Positions 1,193 through 42,470 of a stretch of 42,470 nt of DNA are shown here, piece after piece; positions within the stretch are counted from its first letter, which is position 1, and every line of letters starts with the position of its first letter. Source of the DNA: a virus (taxonomy: Duplodnaviria > Heunggongvirae > Uroviricota > Caudoviricetes); IMG/VR virus record IMGVR_UViG_2909288124_000001. The stretch is one strand, 5' to 3'. The notes below the pieces were generated by a model. That model did not search any database. It was given only the letters and a program-made list of their open reading frames with translations, and was not told the DNA's origin. The translations under genes and the position numbers were made by a program.

Positions 1193-1676
1193 GTGGTCAA
1201 CAAAAACTGGCCACCGAGTTAGAGTTTTTTCCAGTATCGATTTTCCGATTCGTTTGGTGGTAACCCACCATTATATTCGTGCGGTCTTAGTGCGCTGTAA
1301 TATCCAACGATATAGTCCGTTATTGCGTGAGCTGCATCGCTGAAGCTTACATAGCCCGTCGCCGGCACCCATTCGTTCTTCAGACTCCTGAAGAAGCGCT
1401 CCATTGGGCTGTTATCCCAGCAGTTTCCACGCCGACTCATACTCTGCCTGATCCGGTATCTCCACAGTAACTGCCGGAACTGCCTGCTCGTATAATGACT
1501 GCCTTGATCGCTGTGGAACATCACCCCGACGGGCTTACCACGGGTTTCCCATGCCATTTCCAGTGCTTTCATGGTAAGCCTGCTGTCCGGCGAGAACGAC
1601 ATGGCCCAGCCCACTGGTTTTCTTGCGAACAGGTCGAGAACAACGGCGAGGTACGCCCAGCGCTTACCCGTCCAGA
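1193..1676 (-). mobile_element. IS911-like (IS3 family) right-end fragment, separated from its other half (40913..41341) by a group II intron
   Basis: IS3-family terminal sequence at 1193; orfB C-terminal coding sequence; IS sequence stops at 1676/1677 where the intron 3' end begins. Confidence 0.7.
1219..1676 (-). pseudogene. IS3-family (IS911-like) transposase orfB, C-terminal fragment (DDE domain part)
   Basis: Translation ...[27 protein letters not shown]...[10 protein letters not shown]...[18 protein letters not shown]... matches IS3-family OrfB C-terminus; the N-terminal half is at 40913..41273 on the same strand. Confidence 0.75.
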
Positions 1677-1727
1677 GTAGAGTAAGAGGCAGGGCGTAGT
1701 CGGACTATTTCCCTGCCTCTCCTCCCC

Positions 1728-1761
1728 GAACCGGACGTGCACCTTTCAGCGCATCCGGCTC
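1728..1761 (-). ncRNA. Group II intron domain V (catalytic hairpin)
   Basis: Minus-strand sequence GAGCCGGATGCGCTGAAAGGTGCACGTCCGGTTC matches the 34-nt domain V consensus (GAGC...GNRA-like loop...GGUUC) and lies just 3' of the IEP stop. Confidence 0.65.
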
Positions 1762-1766
1762 TCCAT

Positions 1767-2648
1767 TTAAATGCTGGCGAACGCCATTGCCACTTCTGTA
1801 AAGCGCGATGTATACGTGTTTCTGGTCTCCGTCCTCAGATAGGGATTACCTTCGGGTAGCCGCCAGCGGAACAGCTTCTTGCCTTGCCCCACCAACCGGT
1901 ACAGTATTTCGCCGCTGAGCTTGCCGTGATTGGTTTTACCAAATAAAACCCACGTTTTGCTCTGACCCGGTTTCGGTGATTTACACCACCACCTCATCAG
2001 GGAAGCGATACCTGTACGGTATTTGCGGGCCAGCCAGTGAGCCAGCTTCCAGAACACGACACGGTCGATATAACTGAAGACTTTGGCCTTAAAATCAACG
2101 AACTGATAGAACATGGCCCAGCCTTTCAGTTTTCGGTTGAGTTGTTCAGCCATATCGACTTTGCTTTCACTGTAGTTGCCTGATAACAGTGCTGTCAGCG
2201 ATGCGGCGAAGTTTCTGGCTTTCTCCTGCGGGATCGTTGAGACCACTCGCATCTCGCCATAACGACTGCGTTTGCGAATGATCCTGTGCCCCAGAAAGAT
2301 AAAGCCGTCATTAACATGGGTGATTTTAGTCTTATCCATGTTCAGCCTGAGTTTCAGACTGCCTTCGAGCACACCCCGACACTCCTCCCTGATGGCTTCC
2401 GCCTGTGCTTTGGTGCCTTTGACGATGAGGACAAAATCATCGGCATAGCGGCAGTACGCCACCGCGGGTTTCCACTGCCAGTTTTCTCTGACCGCCGTAC
2501 TTCGGCCCCGTTGGATACTGTTATTCCAGTACCACCGATCTTTTCTGGCTTTCCCGCTCAGGTAGCGCTCATGCAGGTATTGATCGAACTCATTCAGCAT
2601 GATGTTCGATAATAGCGGCGATATAACACCGCCCTGTGGTACACCTTC
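1767..2648 (-). pseudogene. Group II intron reverse transcriptase/maturase, C-terminal fragment (RT domains 4-7 and X)
   Basis: GVPQGGVISPLLSNIML (RT domain 4) and YADDFVLIV (RT domain 5, YADD) motifs; continues upstream of the listed Met; N-terminal half is at 39616..40256. Confidence 0.8.
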
Positions 2649-2649
2649 A
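2644..2649. repeat. Target-site duplication CCTTCA, left copy (flanks prophage)
   Basis: Identical hexamer at 39610..39615; identity extends to 8 bp CACCTTCA (2642..2649 and 39608..39615) if 2 bp of each phage end are counted. Confidence 0.6.
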
Positions 2650-2727
2650 TGATGCGCCGCGCGATAAATGCACTCTATCTTGTGCGATAAATGGCATCCA
2701 CGCGGCGTTTCATTATTTGAAAAAGAA
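2650..2727. other. Prophage terminal region (Gin-proximal end) with candidate transposase-binding repeats
   Basis: Repeated GATAAATG motifs at 2663 and 2684 plus CGTTTCATTATTTGAAAAAG, reminiscent of Mu attR A-binding sites (CGTTTCACGATAAATGCGAAAA recalled from memory). Confidence 0.5.
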
Positions 2728-39609: not shown

Positions 39610-39615
39610 CCTTCA
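39610..39615. repeat. Target-site duplication CCTTCA, right copy
   Basis: Identical to 2644..2649. Confidence 0.6.
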
Positions 39616-40256
39616 CTGGCCGCCCGAAAGAGACCGACATCGATATGTCCCGCCTTGATGGTTTTCCACAGCAGAGTCATGAAACGTGCGTCACTGATCC
39701 TGCGGCGTACAGCCTTCATCAGCAGTCGATGATGTACGGTGTCGAAGTAACTGGACAGGTCGCCTTCAATCACCCAGCGTCCCCGGGTTTCACCACAGTC
39801 TGTGAGCTGTAATTTCACCGTGCGGATCGCGTGGTGGACACTGCGCTCAGGCCGGAAGCCATATGAGAGCGTATGAAAATCACTCTCCCATATCGGCTCC
39901 ATCGCCATCAGCATGGCCCGCTGAACAATACGATCCCGCAACGCGGGGATACCCAGTGGTCGCAGTTTGCCGTTGCTTTTAGGGATGTAAACCCGTCTGG
40001 CGGGCAAGGGCTGGTAGTGGCCTGAGAGTAATTCATCCCTGAGGATTTGCAGCTCAACAGCCAGTCTGGCCTGTAGCATTGTTTTGTTCACGCCATCAAC
40101 GCCGGGGGTATGGGCCCCCTTTGATGAAAGCGTGATCCGCGCCGCTTCAGCCAGCCATTCTGGTTGTGTTATCAGACGCAGCAGCCGTTGAATCCGTAGG
40201 GACGGATCGGTGGCTGCCCATGTGGCAAGCTTGCGTTGCATTTCGCTGATTATCAA
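39616..40256 (-). pseudogene. Group II intron reverse transcriptase, N-terminal fragment (RT domains 0-3)
   Basis: ...IPKSNGKLRPLGIPALRDRIVQRAM...LSYGFRPERSVHHAI...WVIEGDLSSYFDTVHHRLLM...; last two codons (Asp-stop) come from the prophage end. Confidence 0.8.
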
Positions 40257-40912
40257 AGGTCTTCACCTCGTTAGGTCAGTTAATTCACGTCGCAAACACA
40301 TTCAAACTGCTTCCCTTCGCCATGTAATGGGCTTTCCCCATCGCGGACTACTACGGAAGCTCCGCCAGCCAGCGCGTCATCGGAGCCATGCCCCCTTAAC
40401 ATCCGTCGCTGACCTTCCCCGGTTTACCTGCCTGGACTCAGGCATACTGAGGAGGCTGCCCGTCGCACTCTTTATCCTTGCTTGCCGCAAGTTGGCAGAA
40501 GTCAGCAACGCAAGCGTGATAGACGCTGCTGCCCCGGTGTTTCGCATACATGTCAAAACACCTTCGACCGGCAGTGCTTACGTATCACTGCCAGTTCCTC
40601 CTGCACGGCCTGTCAGATCACGTAGGCCGTGGTGACGTTTTCAACCCACAGAGGCGGATTAACGGGTTCATGTTCTTCAGCCTTTCAGTACTTAACCTTG
40701 AGGATCATCTCGGCTTAGTGATCTCGCCTCAATCCCCGTTGTCAGCGGGTTACATCACCCTGCGGGCATGCCGCAGGTCACTGCCGCTCAGGTTCTCCAC
40801 CGTCACACCCGGTGGGATTGTTGGGTTTCTCATCGTGAGTTACCGGTTCAATATTCCAGACAGACTCGCGGTTCATTTAAGCATCCATGCCCGCCCTGAA
40901 CTCCGGGCACAC

Positions 40913-41341
40913 TATAGGTCACATCACCGCACCACACCTGATTTGGTTCCGTTACGGCGAACTGTCGCTCAAGATGATTCGGGATAGCAACGTGCTCATG
41001 ACCGCCACGCTTATACCGGTGAGTCGGCTGCTGGCAACTGACCAGCCCCAGCTCTTTCATGAGTCTGCCAGCAAGCCAGCGCCCCATCTGGTAGCCTCTC
41101 TGGGTTGCCATTGTGGCGATGCTTCTTGCTCCGGCAGAGCCGTGGCTGATGCCATGCAGTTCAAGTACCTGGCTGCGTAATACAGCCCGTCTGCCGTCTG
41201 GCTTTTCAGGACGGTTTTTCCAGTATTTGTAGCTGCTGCGATGGACCCCGAACACATGGCAGAGAGTGGCCACAGGATAACGCGCCCTGAGTTTCCCGAT
41301 TATCGAGAACTGTTCAGGGAGTCTGACATCAAGAGCGCGGT
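40913..41341 (-). pseudogene. IS911-like (IS3 family) fragment: 3' end of orfA and N-terminal half of orfB, truncated by IS30
   Basis: ...[35 protein letters not shown]...QVWCGDVTY then intron; upstream boundary is the IS30-like terminal repeat at 41342. Confidence 0.7.
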
Positions 41342-42139
41342 TGTAGATTCAATCTGTCAATGCAACACCCCTTTCAATTATCTCTTTCGGTGTTTTGAAC
41401 TTCAGTGTCTTTCTCGGTCTGTTGTTTAGCTGAGCAGCAACCAGATCTAGTTCATGTTGAGTATATTGGGCAAGACATGTCTTTTTAGGAAAGTACTGCC
41501 GAATTAGCCCATTTGTGTTCTCATTTGTTCCCCGCTGCCAAGGACTCTGAGGATCGCAGAAGTAAACTTTAACGCCGGTGCTGACAGTAAATTCTAGATG
41601 TCTGGCCAGTTCCATTCCTCTGTCCCATGTCAGTGATTTTCTGAGTTCTGACGGTAAACTCAGGAATTTGTCGGTAAGAGCCTGATTTACTGAGACAGAA
41701 TCTTTGCCCCTGAGTCTAAGGATGATCGTATAACGTGATTTTCGGTCTACAAGTGTGGCTATATGAGAGTTTTTTGTACCTGAGACTAAATCGCCCTCCC
41801 AATGCCCCAGAGAGCGTCTGTTATCGATATTTCGGGAACGTTCGTGAATTGGTGTTCCGTTCACTATGTTAATCGTACCTCTTTCGCCTTTGCGGGTATG
41901 ACGCCTGCCATGGCGAAGGCTATGCGACCGTCGCAGATGCTGTATATTCAGGTGGTGTAGCGCTTCACGGCTACGAAAGTACAGCGTTTTATAAATTGTC
42001 TCAGGTGATATTCGCAGCGTTTTTTGACGTGGTTTTGTTCGCCTTAACCATCCTGATATTTGCTCTGGAGACCATTTCATCTCCAGCTTTTCCAGAACAA
42101 GCTTTCGCAATGGTAAATTTTGATCCAGTAAGCACGGTT
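41342..42139 (-). mobile_element. IS30-like element, truncated by IS1 insertion
   Basis: Terminal sequence TGTAGATTCAATCTGTCAATGCAACA at 41342; transposase ORF lacks N-terminal part; IS1 left end begins at 42140. Confidence 0.7.
41349..42139 (-). pseudogene. IS30-family transposase, N-terminally truncated
   Basis: ...HWEGDLVSGTKNSHIATLVDRKSRYT...FCDPQSPWQRGTNENTNGLIRQYFPK... matches IS30 transposase as recalled. Confidence 0.8.
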
Positions 42140-42470
42140 GGTGATGCTGCCAACTTACTGATTTAGTGTATGATGGTGTTTTTGAGGTGCTCCAGTGGCT
42201 TCTGTTTCTATCAGCTGTCCCTCCTGTTCAGCTACTGACGGGGTGGTGCGTAACGGCAAAAGCACTGCCGGACATCAGCGCTATCTCTGCTCTCACTGCC
42301 GTAAAACATGGCAACTGCAGTTCACTTACACCGCTTCTCAACCCGGTACGCACCAGAAAATCATTGATATGGCCATGAATGGCGTTGGATGCCGGGCAAC
42401 CGCCCGCATTATGGGCGTTGGCCTCAACACGATTTTCCGCCATTTAAAAAACTCAGGCCGCAGTCGGTAA
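42140..42470 (+). mobile_element. IS1, left part (continues beyond window)
   Basis: IS1 left end GGTGATGCTGCCAACTTACTGATTTAGTGTATGATGGTG at 42140 followed by insA. Confidence 0.85.
42195..42470 (+). CDS. insA: IS1 InsA
   Basis: 91 aa [43 protein letters not shown]... ending at the last base of the window. Confidence 0.9.

Follow-up and report, generated by a model that had tools for sequence, protein, structure and literature searches.

The DNA analysed here, 42,470 nucleotides (nt) long and taken from the virus record IMGVR_UViG_2909288124_000001 (hereafter the window), was read on one strand, with all coordinates given on the + strand, and is of the Escherichia coli chromosome type. Open reading frames were listed over the whole window and both of its ends were read base by base. 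The window carries an IS256-family transposase gene on the left, followed by ISEc52, an insertion sequence (IS) of the IS3 family resembling IS911; ISEc52 is split by a group II intron, and the intron is split in turn by a transposable prophage of the BcepMu type. On the right, ISEc52 is cut by IS30, which gives way to IS1. About 5.5 kilobases (kb) of non-phage DNA hold six mobile elements. A previous reading of these letters without database searches (the sequence-only reading) had proposed the same nested hierarchy, and it was borne out almost to the base: the breakpoints that it placed at 1677, 40912, 41342 and 42140 were all confirmed in the sequence. Its left boundary of ISEc52 needed correction, as the element had been recognized properly but was taken to start at 1193, while its right inverted repeat begins at 1189. 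We hold with high confidence that the window is a pile-up of known mobile elements produced by successive, mechanistically independent insertions. The features are collected in Table 1.

Table 1. Features of the 42,470-nt window, with the evidence for each.
Feature	Position	Strand	Evidence or remark
IS256-family transposase gene	1-1188	+	Pfam Transposase_mut; left end of the element outside the window
ISEc52 right end (3' exon, C-terminal part of OrfB)	1189-1676	-	contiguous with 40913-41341 in strain KL53
Group II intron, 3' part	1677-2649	-	Rfam RF00029; identity to the 730V1 intron
Target duplication CCTTCA, left copy	2644-2649		single CCTTCA in the 730V1 empty site
BcepMu-like transposable prophage, 36,960 base pairs (bp)	2650-39609	mixed	Pfam/PHROG; PhiKM and ST131 relatives
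Target duplication CCTTCA, right copy	39610-39615		comparison with the 730V1 empty site
Group II intron, 5' part	39610-40912	-	100% identity to the 730V1 intron
ISEc52 OrfB, N-terminal and middle part (5' exon)	40913-41341	-	joined frame; identity to KL53
IS30 fragment, 798 bp	41342-42139	-	100% identity to IS30; Pfam rve
IS1, first 331 bp	42140-42470	+	left inverted repeat and complete insA
Prophage: Gin-like serine recombinase/invertase	2728-3429	-	Resolvase and HTH_7
Prophage: late genes	about 3,400-27,700	-	
Prophage: 401-aa protein, immunity/cargo segment	28645-29850		phrog_5023; weak KwaA/Kiwa match, E 8e-5
Prophage: NA37 nucleoid-associated protein, immunity/cargo segment	29853-30860		
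Prophage: CI-like repressor, immunity/cargo segment	30931-31434		
Prophage: early transposition genes	31,648-39,449	+	
Prophage: rve-type transposase	32882-34651	+	rve; phrog_310, E 2e-147
Prophage: AAA transposition ATPase	34623-35828	+	AAA_22; phrog_296

Elements and junctions outside the prophage

The two pieces of ISEc52, when joined, gave an unbroken OrfB frame (...WCGDVTY/IWTGKRW...) that matches Pfam rve with E 1.2e-31. The right inverted repeat of the element reads TGAAGTGGTCAAC... from 1189, and the piece at 40913-41341 stops at the IS30 insertion, which lies at nt 917 from the ISEc52 right end (the reference ISEc52 has 1,250 bp). The joined 917 nt are 100% identical to the intron-less ISEc52 of strains KL53 and CFSAN051542. 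A terminal inverted repeat starting with TG, an OrfB with a DDE (rve) domain and full identity to annotated ISEc52 place the element in the IS3 family. The flanks of the intron-less ISEc52 in KL53 are those of the window, the IS256-family gene on one side and the IS30 junction on the other, and the bases that correspond to 1676 and 40913 follow each other directly, without gap or overlap. The intron was therefore inserted without target duplication, as in retrohoming.

The 5' exon, which reaches to 40913, ends in ...GTGACCTATA (...ACCTATA) and the intron follows at once. On the - strand its 5' end reads GUGUGCCCGG, the GUGUG of which fits the canonical GUGYG, and its 3' end is ...CUAC. Domains V-VI at 1677-1763 (- strand) matched the full model of RF00029 at 64.9 bits (gathering score 40), and RNA domains I-III span about 40242-40912; the 5' half, searched with permissive settings against the Rfam families for domains I-IV, gave no relevant match. 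Strain 730V1 carries the intact locus, in the same arrangement without the prophage and with an ltrA gene of 502 codons. After removal of the prophage and one CCTTCA, the two intron halves of the window gave 2,270 nt with 0 mismatches to the intact 730V1 intron. The LtrA protein of 502 amino acids (aa) matched RVT_1 (E 1.4e-34) and GIIM (E 1.3e-10) in Pfam. The prophage entered after intron nt 1297, in the ltrA frame after codon 211, and left the N-terminal 211 codons (start codon at 40241) in the 5' part and the C-terminal 291 codons (stop codon at 1767-1769) in the 3' part. Domains V/VI ending in AY, the 5' GUGYG, a protein with reverse transcriptase (RT) and maturase domains encoded in domain IV and insertion without duplication identify a group II intron.

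The intron is most likely E.c.I4. This element inserts at a specific position in IS629, IS911, ISEc16 and ISEc31, and one E.c.I4 fragment is listed in MG1655 (Leclercq and Cordaux, 2012, PMC3522654). We use the name because of these target sites and the MG1655 fragment, together with the identity to K-12 ykfC: the K-12 region so annotated and the 5' part of the intron, flank included, share 99.8% identity, and the fragment listed as E.c.I4 in K-12 matches the intron of the window. The precise site in an IS911-like orfB, the lack of a duplication and the RT and maturase protein are also shared with E.c.I4; the window copy differs in being split by a 37-kb prophage.

The truncated LtrA frame in the 5' part (39603-40241, - strand) encodes 212 aa and ends ...SEG-D-stop, the phage end providing the Asp codon and TAG. 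A large protein collection held no record of this exact, junction-specific 212-aa product. A C-terminal LtrA fragment of 277 aa is on record in many contigs; the phage lay beside it in none of the six places examined, all of which were other damaged intron copies. The damage consisted of internal deletions or other insertion sequences (two copies) and frameshifts (three copies), and one copy carries a Tn3-type transposon with a beta-lactamase (TEM) gene 24-28 nt from the phage insertion point.

On the left, the IS256-family protein matched Transposase_mut with E 4.8e-112 over profile positions 18-377 of 379. Such a mutator-type transposase assigns the gene to the IS256 family, the ends of the element lying outside the window. 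The sequence in the intact copies of two plasmids is ...GGTGAC/CGCCTTGACGGTCACTTCTGA; the window at the same point reads ...GGTGAC/TGAAGTGG..., which is the ISEc52 repeat. The plasmid copies read through the breakpoint where the window switches to ISEc52, and ISEc52 thus cuts the gene 21 bp before its natural stop. This interruption was absent from the sequence-only reading. The new stop of the truncated gene is TGA, the first three bases of the ISEc52 terminal repeat (window 1186-1191). Annotators disagree on the truncated gene, which is entered as complete in KL53 and as partial in 730V1.

On the right, the IS30 inverted repeat TGTAGATTCAATCTGTCAATGC begins at 41342. The fragment comprises 798 of the 1,221 bp of IS30 and encodes a transposase without its N-terminus, in which Pfam recognized the rve domain. 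It is 100% identical to IS30 of 730V1 and K-12 through 42139, with the same junction to ISEc52. In K-12, where ISEc52 is otherwise complete, the same IS30 insertion lies 333 bp from the left end of ISEc52 and is flanked on each side by a duplicated GT. The terminal repeat and the transposase are those of IS30, and the 2-bp duplication was read in K-12, as the far end in the window has been replaced by IS1. The IS1 left inverted repeat, GGTGATGCTGCCAACTTACTGAT, begins at 42140 and displaces the distal 423 bp of IS30 within the window. The 23-bp terminal inverted repeat is followed by insA, and the 91-aa InsA is complete (Zn_ribbon_InsA, E 3e-21; HTH_Tnp_IS1, E 1.7e-30; Pfam). To the base, the window opens with the ATG of the IS256-family gene and closes with the stop codon of insA, and on its own it cannot show either terminal element to be complete.

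In principle, a rearrangement, or an assembly error at repeats, might have put together fragments of different, unrelated copies. IS elements are repeated (a median of 14 matching places per genome) and assemblers can mis-join them; the IS30/IS1 and IS256/ISEc52 junctions, moreover, have no second flank in the window. We nevertheless consider such an origin highly improbable: the 2,270 nt of the intron rejoin without a mismatch, 6 bp that occur once in the empty site are repeated on either side of the phage, KL53 has the two ISEc52 parts in one piece between identical outer junctions, and the breakpoints all coincide with the terminal base of an inverted repeat or with an end of the intron. 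This is the signature of insertion and not of a join inside sequence that several copies have in common. We checked the pieces against intact intron, IS911-like and IS30 references, as the sequence-only reading had suggested, and all of them matched uninterrupted copies. The halves of the intron and of ISEc52 rejoin at 99.9-100% identity in the reference loci, between the same flanking junctions, and we concluded that the fragments are single interrupted copies.

The BcepMu-like prophage

The prophage begins with TGATGCGCC... and ends with ...GTCTAATCA (TGATGCG...TAATCA), and hence has TG...CA termini. Its right end was fixed independently by Escherichia phage PhiKM and both ends by two other prophage copies. 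CCTTCA is duplicated around the prophage and present once in the empty site of 730V1. Both flanks were read at three sites, each with a duplication of 6 bp: CCTTCA in the window, GAAGAA in ST131 and TCTTCG in strain 097H6. A Mu-type duplication of 5 bp was considered, since the two flanks have 8 bp in common when placed on the empty site, and was rejected because the independent insertions fix the TG/CA ends and give 6 bp each time. Both phage ends (2650-2700 and 39560-39609) start with TGAT and carry GATAAATG at nt 14-21. At nt 37-44 the left end has a second copy of GATAAATG and the right end a near-copy, GATATTTA. These repeated motifs are likely to be binding sites for the transposase.

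In addition to the transposase and the ATPase, Pfam and PHROG searches of the prophage matched Gam, GemA, Mor, a Mu-type portal and a tail sheath. PhiKM, which has Bcepmuvirus in its taxonomy line, shares 94.9% identity with the early region, and ST131 strains have, between aroA and ycaL, a prophage that is collinear with most of this one at 98-99% identity. The left end of the window prophage occurs in about 700 complete E. coli genomes. TG...CA termini together with an rve core have been noted among BcepMu relatives (PMC2628397). The window prophage combines an rve transposase and an adjacent AAA ATPase with TG...CA termini, a short duplication at varied sites and a classified relative. With PhiKM and the ST131 aroA-ycaL prophage it shares the transposase, the ATPase, Gam, GemA, Mor, the Mu-type portal, the termini and the 6-bp duplication; it differs from them in the immunity/cargo segment (28,597-31,720), in the orientation of the tail-fibre segment and in the insertion site.

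The sequence-only reading had called the prophage Mu-like, which holds in the broad sense that it shares proteins and transposition with bacteriophage Mu (Muvirus): both replicate and integrate by DDE transposition, and they have Gam, GemA, Mor, the portal, a contractile tail and a Gin-type invertible tail-fibre segment in common. It does not hold for Mu proper. Mu duplicates 5 bp whereas this prophage duplicates 6 bp, and the early and late genes of Mu are co-oriented whereas here the early genes (+) diverge from the late genes (-). Mu-specific transposase domains gave no match in the prophage, in which the generic rve domain alone was detected. None of the three features of Muvirus considered, i.e., a 5-bp duplication, a MuA-type transposase and co-oriented early and late genes, was thus found. 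Because of the 6-bp duplication, the rve domain on its own and the divergent gene order, we assigned the prophage to the BcepMu-like (Bcepmuvirus) phages.

Two variable regions were seen within the prophage. The Gin-like gene adjoins two sets of inverted repeats (3364-3607/5170-5413 and 3803-4031/5185-5413), and the segment 3803-5410 is flipped relative to the ST131 and 097H6 copies. Positions 2728-5413 are an invertible tail-fibre switch, seen here in a different orientation. The ST131 prophage, 98-99% identical elsewhere, lacks the immunity/cargo segment (28597-31720).

Order of insertions and state of the locus in other genomes

The nesting resolves into two chains, both of which start from ISEc52: the intron and then the phage on one side, IS30 and then IS1 on the other. 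Within these chains the partial order of events put forward by the sequence-only reading is correct. The ISEc52/intron/IS30 core was found in 358 of 5,426 complete E. coli genomes, K-12 included, and the IS256/ISEc52/intron side in 53 of them. The phage/intron junction and the IS30/IS1 junction each occurred in 0 of the 5,426 genomes, and exact junction 30-mers had 0 matches in a species-representative genome collection and in viral contigs. As neither junction was seen in the complete genomes, the phage and IS1 insertions are private to the genome of the window and recent. That they are the latest events had been proposed in the sequence-only reading and is backed independently by the counts for the junctions and for the older core.

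The closest annotated counterpart is the K-12 CP4-6 region with insN, insI1 (IS30A), insO (IS911A fragments) and ykfC. It contains the ISEc52/IS911-like copy of the window, interrupted by IS30 at an identical nucleotide and by the intron at an identical place in orfB, and is 99.8% identical over window 39610-42139. K-12 differs in that the whole IS30 and the 333-bp left part of ISEc52 are kept, next to perR, and in that IS5 interrupts the intron at the equivalent of window position 2183. Its intron lacks the prophage, its IS30 lacks IS1, and the complex is without an IS256-family neighbour.

Other strains show the locus in different states. KL53 has IS30 without the intron and 730V1 has both, whereas strain ECONIH5 has the intron without IS30, with the junction GCGCGGT/TGCTTTG. 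In ECONIH5 the ISEc52 fragment is joined straight to a truncated mhpA at the exact IS30 site, and an IS110-family element lies at the position matching window 1506/1507. The conflicting states would have to include at least one event of precise excision or loss, or of recombination. An insertion of the intron after IS30 was considered as a firm order on the strength of the intron-less KL53, and was dropped once ECONIH5 showed the intron without IS30. The complex in 730V1, KL53 and ECONIH5 adjoins clpK and hsp20 (genes of the heat-resistance island) and a truncated mhpA upstream of the IS256-family gene; the K-12 context differs and contains perR and mmuP.

The locus most probably formed as follows. 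ISEc52 abuts and truncates the IS256-family transposase gene. IS30 transposed into the element at 333 bp from the left end of ISEc52, and the intron, most likely E.c.I4, retrohomed into the ISEc52 orfB just after the conserved D-V-T-Y motif, without duplication. These three events are old and common to many E. coli, including the insN/IS30A/insO/ykfC locus of K-12. In the genome of the window only, a BcepMu-like phage then transposed into the intron ltrA gene after codon 211 with a 6-bp duplication, and IS1 replaced the distal 423 bp of IS30.

Dense insertion, splicing and significance

The sequence-only reading had described the locus as an insertion hotspot. As a description of a dense pile-up the term is apt, and a true mechanistic hotspot, where local sequence or structure attracts transposases, including that of the phage, might be argued from more than the crowding of six elements into so little non-phage DNA. 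The complex has also been hit in other strains, by an IS110-family element and, in K-12, by IS5; the Tn3/TEM transposon of another intron copy lies close to the phage point; loci that differ in their flanks have IS30 at one and the same ISEc52 position; and the intron has a sequence-specific target in IS3-family genes (PMC3522654). The distribution of the phage speaks against this mechanism. The same phage occupies six unrelated loci overall: this intron, the aroA-ycaL spacer, ecpC, a place next to flgA, irp2 and yfaL. Its six 6-bp flanks (CCTTCA, GAAGAA, TCTTCG, ATTTTC, CCCTTT and ATTCAG) share a weak T/C-rich (TTC) bias on one strand and no fixed site, and it lies in this intron in 0 of the roughly 700 prophage-bearing complete genomes. 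The mechanisms of the elements are also unrelated, ranging from retrohoming to DDE transposition with differing duplication lengths and an IS110-type transposase. Insertions into mobile DNA that is already dead cost the host nothing and, being harmless, persist. We therefore regard a mechanistic hotspot as unlikely, and infer that the pile-up reflects neutral insertions into dead mobile DNA together with the preference of the intron for IS3-family targets.

The prophage separates intron domains I-III from domains V-VI by 37 kb and breaks the maturase gene. In IS911-type elements the left end bears the promoter, and the ISEc52 left end has been cut off by IS30 and IS1. Given the gap, the broken maturase gene and the lost promoter-bearing end, the intron would no longer splice in cis, in agreement with the prediction of the sequence-only reading. 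We also considered that the prophage might have made a natural two-piece intron, with each half on its own transcript and splicing in trans by means of a maturase from another copy. Trans-splicing is established for group II introns that are broken within domain IV, both in organelles and in engineered bacterial systems; the break in the window lies in the domain IV reading frame and leaves domains I-III and V-VI intact and unmutated, and the phage invertase gene reads toward the 3' half, so that read-through could transcribe it. The 5' exon, however, has been deprived of the promoter-bearing ISEc52 left end, and no co-oriented promoter is evident upstream of it. The exons are pieces of a dead transposase gene, so there is no selection to keep splicing, and an intact intron copy elsewhere would be needed as a source of maturase. 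We give trans-splicing almost no credence, and favor an intron that has lost splicing.

Several points weigh against parts of the account of successive insertions given here. No distal remainder of the IS256-family element beyond ISEc52 was found in any of the related loci examined, and the left end of ISEc52 in K-12 adjoins different DNA. The 3-4-bp target duplication of the IS3 family is not visible, as the left ISEc52 end is absent from the window and the related loci have lost that end or show a different flank. Since the window ends inside IS1, a simple insertion, with the rest of IS30 beyond, and a deletion both fit its right side. The states of KL53, 730V1 and ECONIH5 conflict and leave the relative order of intron and IS30 either way. 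Pairings between exon-binding and intron-binding sites (EBS/IBS) are weakly identifiable: a simple complementarity search gave weak G-U-rich candidates, e.g., UGUGGGU (intron nt 263) versus ACCUAUA. The name E.c.I4 was reached by inference from the literature and from K-12 ykfC rather than from a reference E.c.I4 sequence. The loss of cis splicing (soundly in our view) and the lack of transcription are deduced from the arrangement of the parts.

Every element is known, at 95-100% identity to public sequences, and the locus is not a new system. The core arrangement has long been annotated in K-12, and the new junctions are another case of nested mobile elements. They raise no new mechanism or question, and their value is mainly in bookkeeping: annotation pipelines will list each fragment as a pseudogene of its own. 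As strain-specific markers, the phage/intron and IS30/IS1 junctions could serve for typing or for dating lineage splits. The nesting gives a clean relative chronology of insertions, and the locus illustrates how mobile elements pile into one another.

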